Part shown: positions 19,891 through 31,139 of the stretch, piece after piece
Layout of the letters: each line of letters starts with the position of its first letter
How positions within the stretch are numbered: the first letter of the stretch is position 1
Source: Nitrospirota bacterium
GTDB taxonomy: Bacteria; Nitrospirota; UBA9217
DNA: 64,000 nucleotides
Direction of reading: 5' to 3'
Assembly: GCA_963663225.1 (NCBI GenBank)
Contig: OY760142.1
Location: 2,720,001-2,784,000, forward strand
The notes under the pieces: generated by a model
What the model was told of the DNA's origin: nothing
The model's database searches: none
What the model saw: the letters and a program-made list of their open reading frames with translations, nothing else
Program-made: the position numbers and the translations under genes

Positions 19891-20586
19891 TCAGTTGGTG
19901 TTTTTGTTTACGGGCCTGGTCCACTGTGGAAGGATATTCTTATCAACCAGTGCATTTCGCAACGCGGGATATTCCGAAATAAACAATTTCATATCATCAG
20001 TAAACTTGTCCTCGACCAGGATATCAATTGTGCCGGCGGAAAAACCGACTATGCTTTTTTCTTTCAATTCTACGCTCATAACAGCCATATTGATCACTTC
20101 CCGGCCCGCTGTTGCCTCATTCTTTTCCTTCTTTTTTCGCAGAGTAATATCAATATGGCCCAAATAGCTTATTGCGCCGGGCCTGATCTGCATTTTTAAA
20201 TTTAAAGGAGTATACCCGCCGGCTTCCGTGGCGATTTTTACATACACAAGAGCAGCTGAATGGAGATAATATTCACCGGGCTCCAGTTCCAGGCTGAGCA
20301 AATATTCATTGTGATGATTTTCCTGGTATCTGTATGCGCTGTTTGCCTTATGAAAATACGGCCTTACATTGGAACAGGTCTCCGATTGGGGGCATACAAC
20401 AACACCCGCGAGGTCAAATTGACGGTCCGGTGAATATTCATTTGCTGTCTTAATGGTAAGCAGGGCTATAGATTTCTTTTTGACATCGATTTCCGTTTGG
20501 CCTTGTTTGAGAGCCATCGTGTGAGCTGCGCAGCCGGCAAGTATCAACGGTAAAAAAACAGCGAGCAAAGATCTGAGCACGTTCAT
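19891..20586 (-). CDS. Hypothetical lipoprotein
   Basis: Lipobox LAGC; GGAGG SD. Confidence 0.7.
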   Translation of the reverse strand: MNVLRSLLAVFLPLILAGCAAHTMALKQGQTEIDVKKKSIALLTIKTANEYSPDRQFDLAGVVVCPQSETCSNVRPYFHKANSAYRYQENHHNEYLLSLELEPGEYYLHSAALVYVKIATEAGGYTPLNLKMQIRPGAISYLGHIDITLRKKKEKNEATAGREVINMAVMSVELKEKSIVGFSAGTIDILVEDKFTDDMKLFISEYPALRNALVDKNILPQWTRPVNKNTN

Positions 20587-20829
20587 GGAACCCTCCGCTT
20601 TATAAGACGTTGCTGTTTCTTATGATTTACTTTTATCAATAATAAGGCATCAGCGGCGCGGTTTTATGACTCTCCCGTGTCGAATGGTGAAAATTATCGT
20701 CGGGTTGCACTACGATTTGCCCGGCTACCAGAGCTGTTAAAGTTATAAAAAAACCTTCACAGAGCGAAGGTATCATGAACGCTGATAAATGTAAATACCA
20801 AAGCCATCGTTTATACTTACTGCTGATAA

Positions 20830-21115
20830 TTTCAATAAGATAAGTTGGTGCTGGATTCTATCCGAACTGCTGGTTCATGTGCAATATTGGAATGATTTTG
20901 CGAGGTGAGAATGGGATGCAGCACGTTTCTAAATGTAATTGTTACGGAAGGTATTTACGTTCCTGCGCCGCTATCACCTCATATCAGTATCGACACCTAT
21001 TTTTCATCCGGGTATTTCTCGATTAATACAACTTTTTTAGATTTCACAGCATCACTACCTTCATCAGGTTGTCCGAAGTATGCCGGAAAGGTTGTCGTGA
21101 CATTTGGTTTGAGGT
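20830..21115 (-). pseudogene. Possible decayed gene fragment (boundaries approximate)
   Basis: One minus frame reads protein-like (KPNVTTTFPAYFGQPDEGSDAVKSKKVVLIEKYPDEK*VSILI*GDSGAGT*IPSVTITF) with three in-frame stops. Confidence 0.3.
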
Positions 21116-21134
21116 GAGCGGCGAGGTTCGCAAA

Positions 21135-22004
21135 TTAAAAACTGCGGATGGCCCGAACGTATATTCCAACGCCGTATAACGACTTCACCCAGCTGCCACT
21201 GAAACCTTCCCCCAAATTTTTTACATAGGCGGTGGTGGCAGAGGTTTCAGTCGAAGACCAGGATGGACTATCCGAAAGTAAATATGATCCTATATGGGTA
21301 TACATGAGTTTTGCTTCATCCTGAGAAGGAAGATACCAGTCATCGTACGTGCCATCGCTGTAGTCAAGGCAATGCTGTGCCGCGCTGCTCGTGTGTCCGC
21401 TTTGCGCCACGATGGCGTTCGTGTTCGCAAGACCGGTCCCGATCGCGGAGCCTGTTGTTCCGACTGCCGTGCCGGTTACATTGCTCCATTTGACATTCGC
21501 CGCTTGATTCACTTTCGACGATACGAGTCCGCCGCCATTACCGTTGTTGTAGAAGACGTACCCACCGGCATAGTCGGTCCCGAAGGTTTTCCCGGAATTG
21601 AAGGTTATTTCATTGCTGTACGCCGTACCATTGTAGTTGACGGCATAGGCCCGCACATGATACGTGGTGTCCGTGGTAAGTCCGGTCAATGAAACCGTAA
21701 ATGTTCCTGTTCCCGAACCGCCTGTCACATACGAGTCGGTTAACACCGTGGGGCTGCCGCTGGTATTCCAGCAAAGACCGCGTTCGATAACTGGCGATCC
21801 CCCCTGGTCCGTTATTGCTCCCGCGATTGTTGCGGATGTTCCTGCTATATCAACCGTGTATGTAAGATTTCCGGTAACAGGAGAGGTTGTTATAGTAGCA
21901 AGCCCGACAACAGAAGTGGAAGTGGTACTTCCGCTGTTTTGCCCGCAGCTGAAAAAGACCGTTATGCAGATAAGTGCCGTTAAACAAAATAATGATTTTT
22001 TCAC
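21135..22004 (-). CDS. Lipoprotein with FN3-like domain and C-terminal DUF1566/Lcl-like domain
   Basis: Lipobox FFSC; GGSPVIERGLCW, LTGLTTDTTYHVRAYAVN; DWYLPSQDE, WSSTE, VRAIRSF. Confidence 0.7.
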   Translation of the reverse strand: MKKSLFCLTALICITVFFSCGQNSGSTTSTSVVGLATITTSPVTGNLTYTVDIAGTSATIAGAITDQGGSPVIERGLCWNTSGSPTVLTDSYVTGGSGTGTFTVSLTGLTTDTTYHVRAYAVNYNGTAYSNEITFNSGKTFGTDYAGGYVFYNNGNGGGLVSSKVNQAANVKWSNVTGTAVGTTGSAIGTGLANTNAIVAQSGHTSSAAQHCLDYSDGTYDDWYLPSQDEAKLMYTHIGSYLLSDSPSWSSTETSATTAYVKNLGEGFSGSWVKSLYGVGIYVRAIRSF

Positions 22005-22093
22005 TAAAATTACTCCATTCTTGTTATGGTGTAATTATATTTCTTTATTTCCGCAAAAGACCGGCGCTGTTGATGGATGTTTTCAGTCGTAAT

Positions 22094-22122
22094 AATATAC
22101 GAAAAAACATAAGATAAGTCAA
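22094..22122 (-). promoter_or_regulatory. Sigma70-type promoter upstream of the FN3/DUF1566 lipoprotein
   Basis: Minus strand TTGACT-N17-TATATT. Confidence 0.6.
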
Positions 22123-22159
22123 TAGTATTATATGGTATTTATTTGATTTTACAACGTAA

Positions 22160-22221
22160 ATTTAACAAAACCGCGCTGACGCACAGGCTTAGGCGCGTCG
22201 CTGTGAATCGGCATGCTGATT
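22160..22221 (-). repeat. Degenerate attC site
   Basis: Plus strand ATTTAAC...GGCGCGTCGCTGTGAATCGGCATGCTG; shares GGCGCGTCGCTGT with attCs at 25460 and 23941, but GTT is changed to GCT. Confidence 0.6.
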
Positions 22222-22405
22222 AATTTTATTGTTTGATAAAGCTTGGATGGATTGCGAACTGCGGCTTCGACCTGTCAGGGTAAGTTTCGTTACACTTTTA
22301 TTAAGTTCATTTGTCACACCGAGCTCTAGAATTTCCTTTGCCGTGTGCTGAATGAAAATGATATATTTTTTCGTTTATGACTTCAGAGCGAGCAGCGCTA
22401 TAAGG

Positions 22406-22445
22406 GTAGGCAGGCCGGGTAGTGCGCAACGAAACCCAGCCTGCC
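22406..22445. repeat. REP-like palindrome (GTAG-type)
   Basis: GTAG overlapping stem GGCAGGCCGGGT/ACCCAGCCTGCC (11 of 12 pairs), loop AGTGCGCAACGAA. Confidence 0.5.
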
Positions 22446-22466
22446 GTCACTCATGTGTATTAACGG

Positions 22467-23771
22467 CTATTTATCATGACGGTACACCACGCCGCTCTTC
22501 ATGACGAAATTCACTTTCTCTGTTATGGAAATATCTGTAAAAGGATTTCCGGGCATTGCCACCAAATCGGCAGTCTTCCCGACGCTGATGCTGCCGGTAT
22601 TCAGCTTCAGCATCTCCGCGGCTGTCGACGTTCCTGCTTTCAGCGCGCGCAACGGTGTGATACCGTTGCGGACCATTTCGGAAAATTCTGTCGCGCCGTT
22701 CACGGAAAAATCAAAAGTACCCAGATCAGTGCCTAAAACCAGTTTGACGTCGCTTCTGGCGATATTCCCCGCGTTTTCGAGCAGTCTGGCCGCATATTTG
22801 ACGTCCTTTTCACGGGCCCATTCCGGCATGTTCATGTTGAGATTGCCCCTGGCCGTTTCCCGGGCATTGGCAACTATCGAGATCTGGGTCGGCACCAGAT
22901 AGATGCCTTTCTTCGCCAGCATTTTCAGCGTCGCTACCGACATCAGGCTGCCGTGTTCGACTGACTGCACACCGGCGACCGCCGCACGCCGAACAGCTTC
23001 ATCTCCATACGCATGCACAAACACGGGCTTGCCCAGGTCTTTTGCCGCGGCCACAATAGCATTCATTTCCTCCTGCGAATACGACAAATCCTCAGGTCCG
23101 TCGCTTGGGGACATAAAACCGCCGCTGCCGGCAAATTTGATCCAGTCAGCCCCGTGGCGCACTTCATTATGCACAGCGGTTTTTACCCCGGTTACACCCT
23201 CAACCACTGATACCTGGTCTATGGTGATGCCGTTGCGGAGAAGCCCGCCGAAGTCAAAGTGACCGCCCACCGCGGAAAGCATGTGGCCGCCGTTGATAAT
23301 GCGCGGCCCTTTGATGTCGCCGGCATCAACCGACTTTTTCAGCTCAGTCACTACCCAGGCGTTAATGCTGAAATCGCCCGCGTCGCGCACTGTTGTAAAA
23401 CCGTTCTGCAGAATTTTTTCGCATGCCGTTACGCCGACGAGGGCCAGTGCGGCATCGTTCAGGGACGCCAGATTCGCAATGACCTTGGAACCACCGGTTA
23501 AATGAACATGGCTGTCAATAAATCCCGGCATTACAAAGCGAGTGGACAGATCAATTATTGTTGCGCCTTCCGGCTTGGCGATGTTTTTTCCTATTTCAGT
23601 TATTTTGCCGTTAACAACGGCGACTTCAGCGTACCCCAACGGTTCATTCGTTATACCATCCCAATAATTTCCCATTTTGATAATAGTGGTCTGATTCGGC
23701 GCCGCTGCCGCGAAGCAGGTGACGGATGCCATAAGGAACATCACAAACATTCCAGCAAAAATTCGTTTCAT
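22467..23771 (-). CDS. Secreted metal-dependent amidohydrolase (Xaa-Pro dipeptidase-like subgroup)
   Basis: Signal peptide; PGFIDSHVH, GFTTVRDAG, GGHFD, WIKF, HAYG, VEHG, GTD. Confidence 0.88.
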   Translation of the reverse strand: MKRIFAGMFVMFLMASVTCFAAAAPNQTTIIKMGNYWDGITNEPLGYAEVAVVNGKITEIGKNIAKPEGATIIDLSTRFVMPGFIDSHVHLTGGSKVIANLASLNDAALALVGVTACEKILQNGFTTVRDAGDFSINAWVVTELKKSVDAGDIKGPRIINGGHMLSAVGGHFDFGGLLRNGITIDQVSVVEGVTGVKTAVHNEVRHGADWIKFAGSGGFMSPSDGPEDLSYSQEEMNAIVAAAKDLGKPVFVHAYGDEAVRRAAVAGVQSVEHGSLMSVATLKMLAKKGIYLVPTQISIVANARETARGNLNMNMPEWAREKDVKYAARLLENAGNIARSDVKLVLGTDLGTFDFSVNGATEFSEMVRNGITPLRALKAGTSTAAEMLKLNTGSISVGKTADLVAMPGNPFTDISITEKVNFVMKSGVVYRHDK

Positions 23772-23940
23772 TTTCGTCCTTTCTGAACGTTAAATTTTCA
23801 TTCAACCATTTGGGAGAAAACTGTTTAGGAAGTTATGAATATCTCGGATGTATTTTATCATTTAATTGATACATTTCATGATATATTTCACGAGGGTATT
23901 AGTATTATGGAGTATCAGAACAAATTTGTATGAAACGATG

Positions 23941-23999
23941 AGGGAACGCGCGCCTGACGCGCCGCCTTTGGCGCGTCGCTGTCGAGGCGCAGGTTATTT
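23941..23999 (-). repeat. attC site 5
   Basis: Minus: AAATAAC CTGCG CCTCGACA...CGTCAGG CGCGC GTTCCCT; extra C in L''; R'' AAATAAC complements the cassette start GTTATTT. Confidence 0.9.
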
Positions 24000-24004
24000 G
24001 TTAC

Positions 24005-24565
24005 TTAATCGGATGCCCAGACATAAAGCCACTGACCTTTTTCATAAACATACACGACACCCGTAGATTCGACAAGGCCAGCGACAATGCTCGTATTTAT
24101 TGCCGTCAATCTTTCTCTTTGATTGGCATGTAATTGCTTGTAGTCGTAAGACATTGTGTGCTCGTATGTGCCTGGCTTTGCAGTCTCAACATAACAACCT
24201 TGTATATGTTCATTCCAGATTGGCAGCTCTGCGAGCGACCATTGTTTTTCTCGTGAAAGAGCCGCGATTAGTTTCGGAGTCTTCGTATTCTTGTGCACAA
24301 GAAAGAGCGCAAAATCCTTTTTATTATCCCCGTCAAAGTCCGCGCTCGCGACTGTTAAGCATTGACCTTCCTTGTAATCTGTATTCCATTTAGGATCGTC
24401 GTATAGTTGATCAGTTGCTTTCGCTATGCGGTAGTCGGGGAACTTCTTTCGCAATGCTTCACGAAGGGAGGTGGGGATAAGCTTTTCGCAGGCATCATCA
24501 GCATATACAAAACTGTTGATGCCGACCAATAAGAGGATTGGAATGAGGAATTTAATTGTTCGCAT
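24005..24565 (-). CDS. Cassette-encoded secreted hypothetical protein
   Basis: Signal peptide; FG-GAP-like DFDGDNKKD; lies between two attC sites. Confidence 0.75.
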   Translation of the reverse strand: MRTIKFLIPILLLVGINSFVYADDACEKLIPTSLREALRKKFPDYRIAKATDQLYDDPKWNTDYKEGQCLTVASADFDGDNKKDFALFLVHKNTKTPKLIAALSREKQWSLAELPIWNEHIQGCYVETAKPGTYEHTMSYDYKQLHANQRERLTAINTSIVAGLVESTGVVYVYEKGQWLYVWASD

Positions 24566-24578
24566 ATCGCCTTTTCAG

Positions 24579-24638
24579 AAATAACGCGACGCTGAGGGGC
24601 TCGTTTTTTAGCGACCCTCTCGAGCGTTCTTGTTAGGC
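24579..24638 (-). repeat. attC site 4
   Basis: Minus: GCCTAAC AAGAAC GCTCGAGA...CCTCAGC GTCGC GTTATTT; extra C in L''. Confidence 0.9.
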
Positions 24639-24642
24639 TGTT

Positions 24643-25029
24643 TTATTTGATTGAACTCAACTTGCGTTTTCGCGACACAATAAGCCAAATGCAAACCATA
24701 ACTACAATAAGATATGGTACGACAATTATATAATGATTCGGCAATGCCCATCCTAGACCGTTCAGACCTGCAAAGGCTCCGCCAATAAAAAGCAATACTA
24801 TCTGAATCCAGATAAGAAGTTTACGAGTTTGAGGAACGATAACAGTTGGGAGCATTAAGATTAAGAGAAAGCCTGAAGATATAAGACCGGAGAAGATGGG
24901 TATTCCTAGCGAATCTGCATCTGGCAAATAAACACCTTTGCTTAAATTGTTTTCAAGTACCAGCGTCATGATTACATTAGTCATTATGATGCTTATGAGG
25001 ATTGCTAGACTTTCTTTAAGTCTGATCAT
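24643..25029 (-). CDS. Cassette-encoded small 4-TM membrane protein
   Basis: Four hydrophobic segments; GAGG SD; lies between two attC sites. Confidence 0.75.
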   Translation of the reverse strand: MIRLKESLAILISIIMTNVIMTLVLENNLSKGVYLPDADSLGIPIFSGLISSGFLLILMLPTVIVPQTRKLLIWIQIVLLFIGGAFAGLNGLGWALPNHYIIVVPYLIVVMVCIWLIVSRKRKLSSIK

Positions 25030-25042
25030 CTTTACCTCTGAT

Positions 25043-25123
25043 GACTAACGAGGACGATAAGCGGCCCCGCTGCTACTTGAAGGGCTGGAATGCCATCTGG
25101 CTCCGTTTATTGTCTAGTTAGGC
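25043..25123 (-). repeat. attC site 3 (81 bp, atypical)
   Basis: Minus: GCCTAAC TAGAC AATAAACGG...CCGCTTATC GTCCTC GTTAGTC; upstream gene stop TAA lies inside R''. Confidence 0.8.
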
Positions 25124-25447
25124 CCCATGTCGCTCATAGATAAGCCTCGAAGACTTCTTAAGCCCCGCCTCAACTGTTGGCGTTTTGCCTGGAATATACG
25201 ACTGGAGGTCGATTGTAAGGCTTATATGTGCTTGTAGTTGAGCACGCCAGTTCTCCATTTCGCAAATTGCCGTTGTGAAGGGGTCTGAATCAGTGGCCTG
25301 CGCATCGTGTTCAACTGCAATGTCCAGGTCACTATCTGGCCTTTCTCTGCCGCTAACGCGACTTCCAAGGAGCCACACGCGCGTGATTATGGGCTGTGAT
25401 TCTGCCCAGCTCTTGATTGTATCGATATCGGAGTCTGGCACGGTCAT
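25118..25447 (-). CDS. Cassette-encoded minimal nucleotidyltransferase (MNT, Pol-beta superfamily)
   Basis: GS-x10-DxD (GSRVSGRERPDSDLD), IDL, C-terminal LIYE. Confidence 0.85.
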   Translation of the reverse strand: MTVPDSDIDTIKSWAESQPIITRVWLLGSRVSGRERPDSDLDIAVEHDAQATDSDPFTTAICEMENWRAQLQAHISLTIDLQSYIPGKTPTVEAGLKKSSRLIYERHGA

Positions 25448-25459
25448 CGTTTATTTACG

Positions 25460-25519
25460 GACTAACACGCCGGTCACGCGCCGCCACCTGGCGCGTCGCT
25501 GTGGACCGGCAGGTTGGTC
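25460..25519 (-). repeat. attC site 2
   Basis: Minus: GACCAAC CTGCC GGTCCACA...CGTGACC GGCGT GTTAGTC; extra C in L''. Confidence 0.92.
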
Positions 25520-25544
25520 CTAGTCTTTGCTTTGGATGTTGAGC

Positions 25545-25925
25545 CTAAGAACCGTTATGTCCTGTCCGCTCAAAAGCTATCATTCTAAAACCACCATAAA
25601 TGAAATATAAGCCTATTAGAGTCATGAATGATTTAACGACAAATTGATCAAGAGGAACAAGAGCTATTCCTATGAACGCGGAACCGACGCCTGACACTAA
25701 AATCAATACGATCATTATCCAATTGGCAATTTTGTTGCCTTTATAAATTAAAGCGACCAGGATACCGTACATAATTAGCACAGACAAGTAGCCAATGATT
25801 ACTTCATCGTATTTTGAAGTGAGAATAGCGTGCACAGTCTTAATACAGACCAGCAATAAGTATGCGACTATTATGACTGTTCTCTTCGCAAGGATAAAAT
25901 CATGCTTTTTGACTTCACTCATCAT
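25545..25925 (-). CDS. Cassette-encoded small 4-TM membrane protein
   Basis: Four hydrophobic segments; GAGGT SD; lies between two attC sites. Confidence 0.75.
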   Translation of the reverse strand: MMSEVKKHDFILAKRTVIIVAYLLLVCIKTVHAILTSKYDEVIIGYLSVLIMYGILVALIYKGNKIANWIMIVLILVSGVGSAFIGIALVPLDQFVVKSFMTLIGLYFIYGGFRMIAFERTGHNGS

Positions 25926-25942
25926 TACCTCGTAAGTTTACG

Positions 25943-26002
25943 GACTAACACGCGGGTGAGACGCGCGTCTTTTTCGCGTCGGTCTCGACCCGCAAGTTAT
26001 TG
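25943..26002 (-). repeat. attC site 1
   Basis: Minus: CAATAAC TTGCG GGTCGAGA...TCTCACC CGCGT GTTAGTC; extra C at position 4 of L''. Confidence 0.92.
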
Positions 26003-26268
26003 ATCATTGTTCTTTGCTTTGTGATTTCTTCTTTTGAATTTATAGACGATCCAATGAATTTATAGACGATCCAACCAGATAAGATGAATGAAACCGCTGA
26101 TAACGCAACGAAGACATAAAACCAAAGCGCGTGAATCTCGATTCGGATTTTATCGGTGTAATATGCAGTCATCCATGCACTATAGGTAGCTGCATATAGA
26201 CAATAAAGGGCGAAGAGAAGGCCCAATACAGCCAGCCAAAGATACCGTTTTCTTTTAGACTCGCGCAT
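25945..26268 (-). CDS. Cassette-encoded 2-TM membrane protein (reads through attC1)
   Basis: Two hydrophobic helices; stop TAG lies in the R' core GTTAGTC. Confidence 0.65.
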   Translation of the reverse strand: MRESKRKRYLWLAVLGLLFALYCLYAATYSAWMTAYYTDKIRIEIHALWFYVFVALSAVSFILSGWIVYKFIGSSINSKEEITKQRTMINNLRVETDAKKTRVSPAC

Positions 26269-26281
26269 AGATTAGGTCTAT

Positions 26282-26566
26282 TTACTCTCCGATAAATTCG
26301 TTGTTCTGACTTTTTATGAAATCACTGCTCAGTGGGAAATAAGATCTCCATCCGCCATCGTCGATTGTGCATTTGATTCGAATATTACCGTTCGCCTTGT
26401 CATCCCAAAATGCTTCAATCTCAAGATTGTATAAAACGCCAGACGCTCCTCTCACTTGTAGGATTATCGGCTTTGCCTCAATCATTCTCGTCAACTCGGC
26501 GTATGGCCGGTTTCGATAGGCTTCAAGGTTTTTTGAAGCTATTTCTTTTGCTTCTTGTTTATTCAT
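26282..26566 (-). CDS. First cassette ORF, small soluble hypothetical protein
   Basis: 94 aa; ATG 6 bp after the GTTATAT core; YNLEIEAFWDD...IDDGGWR. Confidence 0.75.
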   Translation of the reverse strand: MNKQEAKEIASKNLEAYRNRPYAELTRMIEAKPIILQVRGASGVLYNLEIEAFWDDKANGNIRIKCTIDDGGWRSYFPLSSDFIKSQNNEFIGE

Positions 26567-26572
26567 CTTCGG

Positions 26573-26591
26573 ATATAACCAGATATTAGTT
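26573..26591 (-). other. Putative attI recombination site
   Basis: Minus: AACTAAT-ATCTG-GTTATAT (degenerate L box, 5-bp spacer, GTT core) directly before the first cassette ORF. Confidence 0.7.
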
Positions 26592-26600
26592 CTTCGGGAA

Positions 26601-26630
26601 AATATAGCATAGAACTGGAACGGTGGTCAA
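26601..26630 (-). promoter_or_regulatory. Candidate cassette promoter Pc
   Basis: Minus strand TTGACC-N18-TATATT with extended TGn, pointing into attI. Confidence 0.6.
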
Positions 26631-26647
26631 TGAATTTAAGAAAGAAC

Positions 26648-26676
26648 TTGACGTAACTGCCGAAAATCATTAAGAT
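26648..26676 (+). promoter_or_regulatory. Candidate integrase promoter Pint
   Basis: TTGACG-N17-TAAGAT upstream of GGAGG and ATG 26769. Confidence 0.65.
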
Positions 26677-26768
26677 CATTCAAAAAGACTAATATTCAAA
26701 ATGTCGTCAAGTTATAATAGCACGACTAATATGCAAAAAATGGAATAGTCAATTTGAAGGAGGTTTTG

Positions 26769-27033
26769 ATGCAGCCGATTCCGGATGACATCCTGAGCCG
26801 ATTTAATGCACTCATGGATCAGAAGTCCGTTCCTGTTGGGTTGCGCGATGAATATCGAAAATGGCTCAAGTATTATCTGGATTTTCGGGTTAAGTATCCT
26901 CCGCCAGACAAGAAATCCGAGCAGGTTCGCCTTTTTATTGATAAGATGCGGTCAAGATGTAAGGATGATGATCTACACGCACTGCGTGCCGAGCAAGACG
27001 ATCAAAGAATTAAAAAGCCCGCTTGATTTCTGA
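26769..27033 (+). pseudogene. intI: Integron integrase remnant with large internal deletion
   Basis: About 62 N-terminal codons (EYRKWLKYYLDF...EQVRLFIDKMRS, integrase SAM-like start) joined out of frame near 26955 to an IntI-type C-terminus DVRMMIYTHCVPSKTIKELKSPLDF*. Confidence 0.88.
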
Positions 27034-27048
27034 ACACGGCAGTTGACA

Positions 27049-27891
27049 TCATTTTTTCACAACCAGTGACATCCATTTCCCATCCGGATATTTTTCCAGA
27101 ATCCTGAATCCAGCTTTTTTCATTGCTTCTATCACTTCATCATTTTGTTCCGCGAGTATTCCGGAGAGGAACGCTATTCCATTTTTCTTTACATGGTCGT
27201 AGAGGGCAGGGGCGAGTTCGATAAGAAGTCCTGAGATGAGGTTTGCTGTTATGACATCGTATTCATTGTGCGTGTCCGCAAGGGTGCCGCACATGATCTC
27301 AATACCGGTTGTACCATTGATCTTGCAGTTTTCCCGTGTTGCATCAACAGCCAGAGGATCATTGTCAATCGCGAGGATGTTTTGATATCCAAGTTTTGAA
27401 GCGGCGATGGCAAGAAGCCCTGTTCCGGTGCCGAGATCGAGAAACGAGTCCTTGCCGGTTTCTTCAGCGTACTTTTCCATGAGCACAAGGCAGGACCGTG
27501 TTGTTTCGTGATGGCCGGTTCCGAAAGCCATTCCCGGATCGATTATCAGATTGATGCGATTGTCCTTCTTTTTTTCCCATGGCGGCAGTATGGCGAAGTG
27601 TTTTCCTACATCAAGAGGCTGGAAACTTTTTTTCCACGATTCATTCCAGTCCTGGTCTTTAATTTCCTTATGCTCAAAGCTCAAGTTCGGCGCATATCCC
27701 GCTTTTTCGAGCAGTTCCTGAAAGAGCGCAAGCCGGCTTTTTATTGTTTTAATATCAATGGTTTCAGGAAAGTACGCAGTGATGCTGCCACTGTTTTCGA
27801 TTACTCCAAGGCAGCCCGCTTCGGTCAGAGATGTGATAAGGTGTTCCTGAAATGGTGCTGCTATACTGATTACAAGCTCATGATATGTCAT
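27049..27891 (-). CDS. prmA: Ribosomal protein L11 methyltransferase
   Basis: DWNESWK, DPGMAFGTGHHETT, LDLGTGTGLLAIAA, DNDPLAV, LSGIL; ORF-track start 27927 overlaps a TTGACA-N18-TACAAT promoter, so ATG 27891 is preferred. Confidence 0.93.
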   Translation of the reverse strand: MTYHELVISIAAPFQEHLITSLTEAGCLGVIENSGSITAYFPETIDIKTIKSRLALFQELLEKAGYAPNLSFEHKEIKDQDWNESWKKSFQPLDVGKHFAILPPWEKKKDNRINLIIDPGMAFGTGHHETTRSCLVLMEKYAEETGKDSFLDLGTGTGLLAIAASKLGYQNILAIDNDPLAVDATRENCKINGTTGIEIMCGTLADTHNEYDVITANLISGLLIELAPALYDHVKKNGIAFLSGILAEQNDEVIEAMKKAGFRILEKYPDGKWMSLVVKK

Positions 27892-28004
27892 GCTGAAGAA
27901 ATCCTTTCGTTTATCGTCAGGAAGCATTGTAACCGCGCAGGTGAAAGGGTGTCAACCAGGATTGTGCATATCTGGAATTTTTTTCGGAAAATTTGTTTTT
28001 TACC

Positions 28005-28034
28005 TTGACAAGTCCACATGTTACGTGTTATTTT
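28005..28034 (+). promoter_or_regulatory. Promoter of rplU-rpmA
   Basis: TTGACA-N18-TATTTT with extended TGn. Confidence 0.55.
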
Positions 28035-28082
28035 ATGCGCTCTAAATAACTGGGTCCGTTGATTCATGAAGGAGGTTTCAGC

Positions 28083-28394
28083 ATGTACGCAGTAATTACT
28101 ACCGGTGGAAAACAGTACAAGGTTTCACCCGGTGATGTGGTCAGGGTGGAGAGCCTTGAGGCAAAAAAGGGTGACACGATCGAGATCAAAGACGTTTACA
28201 TGATCGCAGACGGCGACAAGGTGTCTGTCGGCAAGCCCACGCTCAAGACCGCAAAGGTCACGGCAGAGGTCGTGGAAGAAGGCAGAGGCGAAAAGCTGCT
28301 CATCTTCAAGCACCGCCGCCGCAAAGGTTTTCGCAGAACAAACGGCCATCGTCAGAACTATACGGCGATCAAGGTGAAGGAAATAACCGCGTAA
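28083..28394 (+). CDS. rplU: 50S ribosomal protein L21
   Basis: MYAVITTGGKQYKV...GHRQNYT; GGAGG SD. Confidence 0.98.
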   Translation: MYAVITTGGKQYKVSPGDVVRVESLEAKKGDTIEIKDVYMIADGDKVSVGKPTLKTAKVTAEVVEEGRGEKLLIFKHRRRKGFRRTNGHRQNYTAIKVKEITA

Positions 28395-28480
28395 GTAAAA
28401 CAATGCTGCTGAAAGGCATGGATCAAATTTTCATCGGATCGGGCGCGGCAGCATGTGATTAAGTTTTTGGAGGAATTACC

Positions 28481-28738
28481 ATGGCACATAAAAAAGGCGT
28501 CGGCAGTTCGAGAAACGGAAGAGACAGCAATCCGCAGTTTCTGGGCGTAAAACGGTTTGATGGCGAGCAGGTGCATGCCGGGACCATCATTGTCCGTCAG
28601 CGCGGGACCAGGTTCCACCCGGGAACGAACGTGGGCAAGGGGTGCGATGATACGCTCTTTGCGAAGATCAACGGAGTGGTAAAGTTTGAGCGCTATGACA
28701 AGAAGCGCAAGCAGGTGAGCGTGTACGCAGTGGCGTAA
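28481..28738 (+). CDS. rpmA: 50S ribosomal protein L27
   Basis: [24 protein letters not shown]. Confidence 0.98.
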
Positions 28739-28762
28739 ACGGTTCAAACAGGATCGATCACG

Positions 28763-28794
28763 AAGGCGGCATGATTCTCCATGCCGCCTTTTTT
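28763..28794 (+). terminator. Intrinsic terminator after rpmA
   Basis: AAGGCGGCATG-ATTCTC-CATGCCGCCTT followed by a T-run. Confidence 0.85.
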
Positions 28795-28914
28795 GTTTTC
28801 TGTCATTCAAACTTGCATTTTTACCGGTATGACTGTATAGTTTATTGAAAATATTATCTAAAATATCTTTAGTGGCAATTCAGGCGCGTTGCTGGAAATG
28901 GAACAGAGTGCTTC

Positions 28915-29967
28915 ATGTCAAATTTTATTGATCGGGTCAAAATTTTAGTAAAAGCGGGGCACGGCGGCAGGGGTTGCGTCAGTTTTCGCCGGGAGGCGTA
29001 CGTGCCGCGCGGCGGCCCGAACGGCGGCGACGGCGGCAAGGGCGGCGATGTGATCATCAGGGCTGATAAACAGCTCGGCACCCTGATTGATCTCAAATAC
29101 CAGCAGCAGTACCGCGCCCATGACGGGGAGCACGGCCGCGGCAAGGAGCAGTTCGGCGCGGACGCGGATGACGTTATTGTTCGCGTTCCTGTTGGCACGA
29201 TCGTGACCGACGCGGAAACCCGGACGCTGATTGTCGACCTCGACACTGACGGAATGGAGTACACGGCAGCGAAAGGCGGCAGGGGCGGAAAAGGGAACGC
29301 TTTTTTCAAGACTGCCACGCACCAGGCGCCCCGATTCGCGCAACCCGGTGAGCCGGGAGAAGAACAGTGGCTGTATCTCGAACTGAAGCTTCTCGCGGAT
29401 GTGGGGCTGGTGGGATTTCCGAACGCCGGCAAATCAACGCTGATATCGCGCATATCCGCGGCAAAGCCGAAGATTGCCGATTACCCCTTCACCACGCTGT
29501 CGCCGGTGCTGGGCGTGGTCAAGCCGGAAGGCAGGCACAGCTTTGTGGTAGCCGACATTCCCGGTCTGATCGAGAACGCGCATAAAGGGGCCGGCCTCGG
29601 CTTTGAGTTTCTGCGGCATGTGGAGCGGACGTCGATCCTTCTGCATATGGTTGACGTGTCCGGCATGGTGCCGGGCGATCCGGTCGATAATTTCAACAAG
29701 ATCAATGCAGAGCTTGAACTCTACAGCAGCGAGTTAAAGAAAAAATACATGGCTGTAGCCGCGACAAAAATTGATGCGGCTGACCAGGAAAGCCTTCAAA
29801 AGCTTCAGGCATATTGTTTTGAAAAGGGGCACGCGTTTTTCCCCATTTCCTCGGTAACAGGACAGGGGATAGAAGCGCTGGCCCATTTCCTTGCTGATCA
29901 GGTTGAAGAAGAAAGGAAAAGCAGAAATCTTCTGCTGGAAGCCCAAAAGAACAAGGCTGCAACCTGA
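28915..29967 (+). CDS. obgE: GTPase ObgE/CgtA
   Basis: Gly-rich Obg fold; GFPNAGKS, YPFTTL, DIPGL, TKID. Confidence 0.97.
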   Translation: MSNFIDRVKILVKAGHGGRGCVSFRREAYVPRGGPNGGDGGKGGDVIIRADKQLGTLIDLKYQQQYRAHDGEHGRGKEQFGADADDVIVRVPVGTIVTDAETRTLIVDLDTDGMEYTAAKGGRGGKGNAFFKTATHQAPRFAQPGEPGEEQWLYLELKLLADVGLVGFPNAGKSTLISRISAAKPKIADYPFTTLSPVLGVVKPEGRHSFVVADIPGLIENAHKGAGLGFEFLRHVERTSILLHMVDVSGMVPGDPVDNFNKINAELELYSSELKKKYMAVAATKIDAADQESLQKLQAYCFEKGHAFFPISSVTGQGIEALAHFLADQVEEERKSRNLLLEAQKNKAAT

Positions 29968-29984
29968 CAAACAGTTGTGCACGG

Positions 29985-31139
29985 GTGAAACCATCGATGA
30001 AGAATATTTCGATAAACAGAAAAAGCATATTTTCCAAATCCCGCAGAGTTGTCGTAAAAGTCGGGAGCGCGGTGCTTACTTCGTCCGGACAGGGGCTTGA
30101 CCAGAACCGTATCGATGACCTCGCAGCTGATATTTCGGCATTGATGAACAAGGGACACGAAGTGATTCTCGTTTCTTCCGGCGCCATTGCGGCAGGGCTC
30201 GCGAAACTCGGACTAAAAAAAACCAAAGGCATGGCCCTTTCGCTCAAGCAGGCCGCGGCGGCAATCGGCCAGTCCGGCCTCATGTGGATCTATGAAAAAA
30301 CCTTTGCCGTGCACGGCCGGAAGGTGGCCCAGGTTCTGCTTACCCGGGATGATCTTTCGAACCGCACGCGCTTTTTGAACGCCCGCAACACGCTCCAAAC
30401 CCTGCTCAGCTACGGTGTGGTGCCGATCATCAATGAAAACGACACGGTTTCCGTCGATGAAATAAAGTTCGGCGACAACGACAACCTCTCCGGAATGGTT
30501 GCCCATCTGGCCGATGCAGACATGCTCGTGATCGTTTCGGATGTCGAGGGGCTGTATACCGGCGATCCCCGGCTGGACCCTTCGGCAAAGCTGATTCCCC
30601 TGGTCGAAAAAATAACGCCGGACATGGAGCGTGCGGCCGGAGACGCGCAGACTGCCGTGGGGCTGGGAGGCATGCGCTCGAAAATTACGACCGCCAAGAA
30701 AGTGTCCGCCTACGGCGCGTACATGGCTATCGTAAACGGCAGAAAACGCAATGTGCTGCAGGCGTTGTTCGACGGCGGCGATTTGGGTACATTGTTTCTT
30801 CCCAAGGCGAAAAAACAGGACAGTCGCAAACACTGGATTGCATATACCGTAAAGTGCAGCGGACGGCTCATCGTGGATGACGGCTGCCGAGATGCGCTCA
30901 TGAACAAGGGCAAGAGCCTTCTGCCGGGTGGCATCGTGAAGGTGGAGGGTGTTTTTAAAGTCGGCGACTGTGTCAATTGCACGGACCGGGGCGGCCGCAC
31001 CTTTGCGCGCGGACTGGTTAAATATACTGCAAGCGAGCTTGACCTGATTAAAGGGTTGAAAACGTCCCAGATTGAATCGGTTCTCGGTCACAAGGATTAT
31101 GATGAAGTCATTCATCGGGACGATATGGTGATATTGTAG
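29985..31139 (+). CDS. proB: Glutamate 5-kinase with PUA domain (exact start uncertain)
   Basis: VVKVGSAVL, VSSGAIAAG, KQAAAAIGQ, INENDTV, FGDNDNLS, GGMRSK. Confidence 0.97.
   Translation: MKPSMKNISINRKSIFSKSRRVVVKVGSAVLTSSGQGLDQNRIDDLAADISALMNKGHEVILVSSGAIAAGLAKLGLKKTKGMALSLKQAAAAIGQSGLMWIYEKTFAVHGRKVAQVLLTRDDLSNRTRFLNARNTLQTLLSYGVVPIINENDTVSVDEIKFGDNDNLSGMVAHLADADMLVIVSDVEGLYTGDPRLDPSAKLIPLVEKITPDMERAAGDAQTAVGLGGMRSKITTAKKVSAYGAYMAIVNGRKRNVLQALFDGGDLGTLFLPKAKKQDSRKHWIAYTVKCSGRLIVDDGCRDALMNKGKSLLPGGIVKVEGVFKVGDCVNCTDRGGRTFARGLVKYTASELDLIKGLKTSQIESVLGHKDYDEVIHRDDMVIL

Follow-up and report, generated by a model that had tools for sequence, protein, structure and literature searches.

Inactivated integrons are documented in Xanthomonas, where chromosomal integrons lie downstream of ilvD and carry inactivated integrase genes (intI) (Gillings et al. 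2005, as summarised in 10.1101/2025.06.18.660453). In the part of that account drawn on here, frameshifts, stops or large deletions had destroyed intI in the majority of lineages, the arrays were retained, and the inactivation was lineage-specific and often ancient (10.1101/2025.06.18.660453). Clusters of attC sites that have no integron integrase (CALINs) hold at least two attC sites with no functional intI nearby, and the relevant part of the survey that describes them gives loss of intI as one proposed origin (Cury et al. 2016, PMC4889954). The same part records intI pseudogenes near 15 of 279 CALINs, from a screen that demanded more than 50% profile coverage (PMC4889954). The window analyzed here is a stretch of 64,000 nucleotides from a Nitrospirota bacterium (positions 2720001-2784000 of a single-contig genome of 3,255,001 bp, 98.99% complete), and its positions 23941-27033 very probably constitute a degenerate chromosomal integron of this bacterium, in which the integrase gene was gutted by an internal deletion. 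An integrase-less integron that keeps its attI site, promoter candidates and cassettes is a common, already described fate of such elements.

Like the Xanthomonas ilvD integrons, as far as the cited account covers them, this is a fixed chromosomal locus beside a housekeeping gene, with intI lost and the array kept. It differs from them in belonging to Nitrospirota, in lying at prmA, in deriving from an IntI with an extra N-terminal SAM-like domain of ~150 aa, in being one of several platforms per genome, and in the evidence of cassette movement after the loss. With four to five attC sites and no functional intI in the locus or the genome, it falls within the CALIN definition; unlike the CALINs in the cited part of PMC4889954, it still has attI and promoter candidates attached, together with a very short, recognizable intI remnant. 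The array is small (five to six cassettes), below the more than 19 attC sites that define a sedentary chromosomal integron. The locus is flanked by an amidohydrolase gene on the left and by prmA on the right. It comprises six short minus-strand open reading frames (ORFs) with GC-rich imperfect palindromes between them, followed on the right by an AT-rich non-coding element of ~190 bp and a 265-bp plus-strand open region.

This open region (26769-27033) is an intI remnant in which opposite ends of one IntI are joined out of frame. Neither frame of 26754-27033 gave a family match in Pfam and NCBIfam scans, TIGR02249 (the NCBIfam integron integrase family) included, so homology was sought against the full-length genes of relatives, whose genomes are labelled Nitrospirota. 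TIGR02249 matches above the cut-off of 265 bits were present in 13 of 41 genomes (the present genome being counted among the 41), and the full-length IntIs of two same-genus genomes, G005 and G004, scored 346.6 and 341.7 bits. Full-length intI genes of this genus encode proteins of 477-497 aa. An intact relative IntI has two PF13495 SAM-like stretches (the best at residues 165-246) and PF00589 at 280-461, and the relatives' proteins carry a lineage-specific N-terminal extension of ~150 aa, which is an extra SAM-like domain.

The 5' piece of the remnant (26769-26956, plus strand) represents codons 1-63, with AGGAGG and ATG intact. Its 63 codons align with residues 1-63 of the 477-aa IntI of G005 (34/63 identical, E 1e-20) and the piece also aligns with residues 11-70 of the G004 IntI (25/60, E 4e-16). 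The 3' piece (26957-27033, plus strand) is read in the +1 frame with respect to the 5' piece and represents the last ~25 codons and the stop, as aligned to the IntI C-terminus; it holds the MIYTH motif. Within it, the +1 frame of 26968-27030 (MIYTHCVPSKTIKELKSPLDF, 21 residues) matches residues 477-497 of the G004 IntI (16/21 identical, E 2e-11). Both fragments are thus homologous to members of TIGR02249, and the remnant itself matches no family. The original prediction, made from the letters of the window, had proposed an integron whose intI joins the N-terminal region out of frame to the last 25 codons, and expected a blastx search to give two high-scoring segment pairs at opposite ends of one IntI; exactly these were obtained with G005 (1-63) and G004 (477-497). 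The outcome that would have spoken against it, namely fragments matching unrelated non-integron recombinases, was not seen, both reference proteins passing TIGR02249.

DNA alignment with a full-length gene and with other remnants placed the junction at 26956-26967. In relatives that share this junction, the +1 frame retains D-V-R-T-(T/M)-M-I-Y, so the 3' piece most likely covers the whole of 26957-27033, the window having lost 3 nt. The missing part of intI amounts to about 1.17 kb, corresponding to residues ~64-452. The canonical SAM-like domain and the integron-specific insertion lie within the deleted part, and of the catalytic domain only the tyrosine motif survives; loss of the insertion and of the catalytic core had been predicted, and the position of PF00589 in the intact relative agrees with it. 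No intact integron integrase with the IntI-specific insertion is therefore present at the locus, which keeps residues 1-63 and the last ~25. What is left of the N-terminal side belongs to the extra SAM-like extension and not to the canonical IntI N-terminus, and the remnant covers only about the last 20 positions of TIGR02249. Given its demand for more than 50% coverage, the pseudogene screen described in the cited part of PMC4889954 would miss this remnant. An extended microhomology at the junction was suggested by the IntI-like look of the +1 frame upstream of 26957 (which is also the case in the database protein P0002); it was rejected, as the alignment to a full-length gene supports only a short ambiguous zone at 26956-26967.

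The junction is real and not a misassembly. Contigs of 4,495 bp, identical in two public runs (X1 and X3, from the same sample and assembled with an independent assembler), cover 24556-27600 with no difference and no alternative joint; a third run, X5, gave scattered low-depth pieces only, and the one raw-read run, X6, gave no reads over the locus. The contigs thus cross position 26955, at which read mapping had been suggested earlier. The same junction also occurs in other assemblies, at the G004 contig C19 (G004:C19) and in the database proteins P0012, which has the same out-of-frame tail, and P0002, which is read in the C-terminal frame. That the deletion, or the duplicated cassette described below (cassette 5), is an artefact of collapsed or mixed strains is a thought invited by the possible origin of the genome from a community sample and by the fact that cassette 5 is a repeat, where assembly graphs break. 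We regard this as hardly credible in view of the contig from an independent assembler, the identical junction elsewhere, and the depth of the 641-bp unitig, which is close to the sum of its two contexts (27.8 versus 11.3-14.6 in X1).

The remnant adjoins an attI and promoter element at 26576-26768 (no strand assigned). Conservation among nine aligned copies, including five further ones from this genome and three from G004, begins exactly at the crossover triplet AAC (26576-26578), which is followed by CAGATATTAG, and the sequences on the cassette side are unrelated. Compared with G004:C19, for example, 180 of 192 positions (93.8%) are identical on the attI side versus 7 of 16 on the cassette side. 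In other genera, the same element is found directly upstream of full-length intI (L011, L014, L010, L016, and L009), and in one copy of this genome (copy A, below) a cassette is inserted exactly at the boundary between AAC and C. The attI-like site of the original prediction is thus borne out by the nine-copy boundary and by the position of the element next to intact intI. It does not fold as a hairpin (z-score ~0), as expected of an attI site. A hairpin, or a promoter cassette devoid of an ORF, was ruled out for this element on account of the absence of folding and the adjoining intact intI in other genera.

Divergent promoter candidates, also predicted earlier, were found where expected, by consensus match, position and conservation. 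The candidate cassette promoter (Pc; 26630-26601, minus strand) reads TTGACC, 18 nt, TG-n-TATATT (10/12 matches plus the TG) and is aimed at the cassettes; the candidate integrase promoter (Pint; 26648-26676, plus strand) reads TTGACG, 17 nt, TAAGAT (9/12) and is aimed at the intI remnant. The complement of the Pc -35 box, GGTCAA, is kept in seven of the nine aligned copies, with one mismatch in each of the other two, and the complement of the -10 box, AATATA, in six of nine; the Pint candidate is conserved in the copies closest to the window. Promoter-like sites are no more frequent in the whole region than in shuffled sequences (7 versus a mean of 7.2), so the case for both candidates is one of position and conservation only. 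Between the Pint candidate and the intI start, a repeat search (family D3) found two direct repeats on the plus strand, GACTAATAT(T/G)CAAAA, at 26687-26701 and 26724-26738. These are kept in nearly all copies, including those beside intact intI, and could be accessory binding sites or an operator, for either the integrase or a repressor. Their CTAATAT motif recurs in inverted orientation at the attI crossover.

Four attC sites were identified by covariation, all with their bottom strands on the plus strand of the window: attC5, the last strong site of the array (23941-23999; R' AGGGAAC, R'' GTTATTT; hairpin of -18.3 kcal/mol), attC4 (24579-24638; R' AAATAAC, R'' GTTAGGC; extra T, G, and T on the 3' arm), attC2 (25460-25519; R' GACTAAC, R'' GTTGGTC; -22.4 kcal/mol, z-score -3.66), and attC1 (25943-26002; R' GACTAAC, R'' GTTATTG; -17.1 kcal/mol, z-score -3.40). 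They are 59-60 nt long, align end to end with a mean column identity of 75%, and share one hairpin in which 98.5% of the cells are paired and 7 of 17 pairs show compensatory changes. None of 500 shuffles reached this level and register-shifted controls paired at 32-49%, the structure used in this test being derived from the folds of the same four sites. All four show the RYYYAAC...GTTRRRY palindrome with paired boxes, with AAC and GTT at the ends and a spacer of two unpaired bases; their extrahelical bases include an unpaired G that is invariant and lies on the 3' arm of the plus strand. This makes the plus strand the bottom strand that recombines, so that the extra base corresponds to a C on the top strand of the cassettes, in agreement with the extra C that had been noticed in four sites.

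A narrow covariance model, R1, was built from these four sites, whose own scores are thus matches by construction (74.6 bits for attC5, 69.1 for attC4, 72.9 for attC2, and 74.4 for attC1). It found nine further attC sites in the arrays of relatives (L031, L032, L033, L035, and L036), on the expected strand and with E values of 3.5e-16 to 3.7e-4, and seven further sites in the same genome. No matches to R1 were found at 12 loci with full-length intI, which hold at most ~1.5 kb of the cassette side, and an Rfam scan of 20000-30000 gave no attC-type family, with two weak unrelated matches near 28.7 kb only. Of the five attC sites originally proposed, the fifth, attC3 (25043-25123, plus strand; 81 nt, GACTAAC...GTTAGGC), is a probable attC site of another type, as judged by its 7-mers, its position between two cassette ORFs, and its fold. 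It forms a 13-bp stem with three G-T pairs, which is more stable on the plus strand (-11.8 kcal/mol) than on the minus strand (-6.7 kcal/mol), with a z-score of -0.86; it shares with the other four the 7-mers and the stem only.

One attC site lies at the 3' end of each cassette ORF, and orientation is the same throughout, with all bottom strands on the plus strand and all ORFs on the minus strand. Cassette 1 (25945-26566) has two ORFs with no attC between them, at 26282-26566 (94 aa) and 25945-26268 (107 aa). Cassettes 2 (ORF 25545-25925, 126 aa) and 4 (ORF 24643-25029, 128 aa) encode hydrophobic proteins, and cassette 5 (23945-24585; ORF 24005-24565) encodes a protein of 186 aa, family scans having assigned none of these three to a family. 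Cassette 3 (ORF 25118-25447) encodes a minimal nucleotidyltransferase of 109 aa that resembles the MntA antitoxin (PF18765, E 2.1e-10; NF047752, 36.1 bits, below the cut-off of 60); it stands alone, the cassette holding no partner of the HepT type. In cassette 1, an exact 20-bp tandem duplication (TGAATTTATAGACGATCCAA twice, at 26035-26074) inside the second ORF throws it into another frame, in which it continues into attC1; were the repeat unit present only once, the ORF would end at a TAA within the attC R'' box.

We then considered the age of the lesion. The original prediction had described a recent, one-off deletion caught in the act, a snapshot in which a static, frozen array was becoming a CALIN. 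The remnant is indeed unique within this genome, its ribosome-binding site and ATG, the attI site and all attC sites are intact, and no intact intI accompanies it in the genome. However, the same junction is found in the ~10% diverged copy at G004:C19, in another species and with other cassettes and another downstream flank, as well as in the two database proteins cited above, which is difficult to reconcile with a snapshot. The module common to the window and G004:C19 has the attI crossover and the intI stop codon as its exact limits, with 89.8% identity in the 63-codon stub and 90.8% in the 3' piece in addition to the attI similarity given above. Furthermore, only scraps of intI are left at the orthologous loci beside prmA in G002 and G004: similarity to the window begins at 26994 in G004:C29 (L032), whose remnant is different and shorter, and at 26970 in G002:C159, which retains 19 C-terminal codons. 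An integron remnant is thus present beside prmA in the present genome (G000), G002 and G004; no integron signal was found within 1.2 kb of prmA in G003, a more distant congener. With the cassette transfer described below added to these observations, a recent deletion of this kind appears unlikely.

The lesion is instead old, or else recurrent, the reading as an old deletion assuming a single origin of the shared junction. Using the 63-aa N-terminus as a query, 64 matches were found in 33 of 61 family genomes. The open frame that holds the match has 440 aa or more in 27 cases, 151-439 aa in 13 and no more than 150 aa in 24. Shortened frames are therefore the majority state of intI 5' ends in the family (37/64), although some of the short ones may be cut by contig ends, and these counts point to intI loss by internal deletion as the common state. 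Other junctions were also seen: G004:C2 (L034) keeps residues 1-88 and 418-477, P0022 is fused in frame, and P0018 and G004:C29 have yet other junctions. As a separate observation, the locus has a mosaic structure: its part to the right of ~26994 is orthologous to the G004 prmA locus (G004:C29, L032), and the module of attI and intI remnant, delimited exactly by the crossover and the stop codon of intI, is closest to a different G004 locus (G004:C19, L033), which suggests that the integron platform may have been replaced by recombination.

A rival reading is that the 63-codon stub is kept as a small SAM-like DNA-binding protein, for instance one that binds attI or promoters, encoded by a domesticated gene. 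Between the stubs of the window and G004:C19, the ratio of non-synonymous to synonymous rates (dN/dS) is 0.15, a value that is based on 17 changes (7 non-synonymous, 10 synonymous) with no neutral reference. The stub also has an intact AGGAGG and ATG in the window, 24 of the 64 family matches lie in frames no longer than 150 aa, and the databases hold 41 other short homologs (50-111 aa), some of them on contigs of 10 kb to 2 Mb. Against such a function, the ATG of G004:C19 is changed to TTG, its ribosome-binding site is weakened and 24 nt are deleted; truncation points and tails vary from copy to copy; no more than a few dozen bases of intI are left at the five other platforms of this genome; and conservation is as high in the out-of-frame 3' piece as in the stub, which by itself has no Pfam match. 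We consider it quite improbable that the stub is a retained gene and favor decay of intI.

No complete intI was found in the genome, as had been asked at the outset. None of 15 TIGR02249 matches in the complete 3.26-Mb genome passed the cut-off (the best had 89.5 bits, and all were without model positions ~180-234), and tblastn with two full-length IntIs returned Xer-like genes of 23-32% identity, the window remnant, and two short fragments. The latter resemble box II of same-genus IntIs and lie at genome positions 1125887-1125964 (20/26 identical) and 1238823-1238909 (16/29). The first stands beside a 302-aa ORF followed by an attC match at 1127157-1127217, and looks like another decayed integron.

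A BLAST search with 26567-26768 revealed five further copies of attI in the genome, with 74-82% identity. These are copy A at 1946984-1947162 (82% identical; attC match at 1946351), copy B at 253126-253295 (attC match at 254889), and copies at 886154-886280 (887926), 2315353-2315476 (2314789) and, weakly, ~1624436-1624513 (1624192). At all five, the attC match is on the correct strand and on the cassette side (E 2e-17 to 0.35), and each copy lies directly upstream of a different ORF. No IntI-like segment was found beside any of them, and the 5' end of intI is reduced to a few dozen diverged bases at most. The window locus is one of six attI platforms without intI in a genome without an intact intI.

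Cassette 5 has a second copy at 1946355-1946995, identical over 641 of 641 bp. The identity stops on both sides at AAC triplets, that is, exactly at the AAC/GTT crossover triplets; the cassette abuts attC4 in the window and attI copy A at the second locus, and in assembly it forms a separate unitig of 641 bp with about twice the depth. Such an exact copy is the signature of IntI-type recombination between the G and the TT. The absence of any difference in 641 bp, compared with ~10% between the two carriers of the deletion, places the cassette transfer after the deletion, provided that the junction has a single origin and that gene conversion is set aside. Judging from these relative divergences, the cassette probably moved more recently than the deletion occurred, through an IntI from elsewhere than this locus; the acting IntI would be a since-lost resident copy or would belong to an element outside the chromosome. 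The array is therefore probably not frozen, in contrast to what had first been proposed. A bolder reading is that the six integrase-less platforms still exchange cassettes in a genome without an integron integrase, either through IntI supplied transiently from outside the chromosome or through an unrecognized resident recombinase, together with the related idea that the 63-codon stub, which is widely retained, serves the platforms as a domesticated DNA-binding regulator; we hold this to be unlikely.

Taken together, the attC hairpins, the attI element and the two-ended IntI remnant bear out the proposal of a real integron with a gutted integrase. In the history that we favor, the original element would have consisted of a divergent integrase gene encoding 477-497 aa, a cassette array, and an attI site at which Pint and Pc stood back to back. 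IntI residues ~64-452 would then have been lost in an internal deletion of ~1.17 kb, which fused 63 codons out of frame to the last ~25. The five cassettes would now be ordinary chromosomal genes, presumably expressed through Pc and ribosome-binding sites of their own. With the recombination sites intact, they could be excised or inserted whenever IntI is supplied in trans, and the exact copy of cassette 5 suggests, by its relative divergence, that such mobilization took place after the deletion.

Several points weigh against this history. The sample of runs X1 and X3 is probably the source sample itself and hence not independent. Plasmids missing from the one-contig assembly could carry intI. 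Gene conversion could in principle keep the two copies of cassette 5 identical, and recurrent deletion at the same short similarity is an alternative to a single origin of the junction. The low dN/dS of the stub fits recent independent deletions or residual selection. Moreover, attC3 was missed by R1 even with filters off, and the Pc and Pint candidates are consensus matches only.

Regarding the flanks, prmA (27049-27927, minus strand; PF06325, E 4.5e-72; TIGR00406, 196.5 bits with a cut-off of 183.15) is convergent with the intI remnant, and the array does lie beside it, as predicted. The amidohydrolase gene is at 22467-23771 on the minus strand (PF01979, E 5.5e-41). Downstream of it, at 22166-22221, there is a degenerate attC-like site (R1 score of 15.6 bits, E 0.17) without the terminal GTT, which has a 14-nt exact run, GGCGCGTCGCTGTG, in common with attC2. 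The region around this site and the amidohydrolase gene are conserved at 91-94% in G002 and G004. The amidohydrolase gene may be a sixth, fossilized cassette.

The locus documents the usual end state of chromosomal integrons outside Proteobacteria, in which the integrase is lost and attI, the promoter candidates and the cassettes persist. Standard pseudogene screens would label such loci as plain CALINs. With six attI platforms, no integrase, and one exact cassette transfer between two of the platforms, this genome is a compact natural test case in which it can be asked whether integrase-less arrays are truly inert or still serviced in trans.

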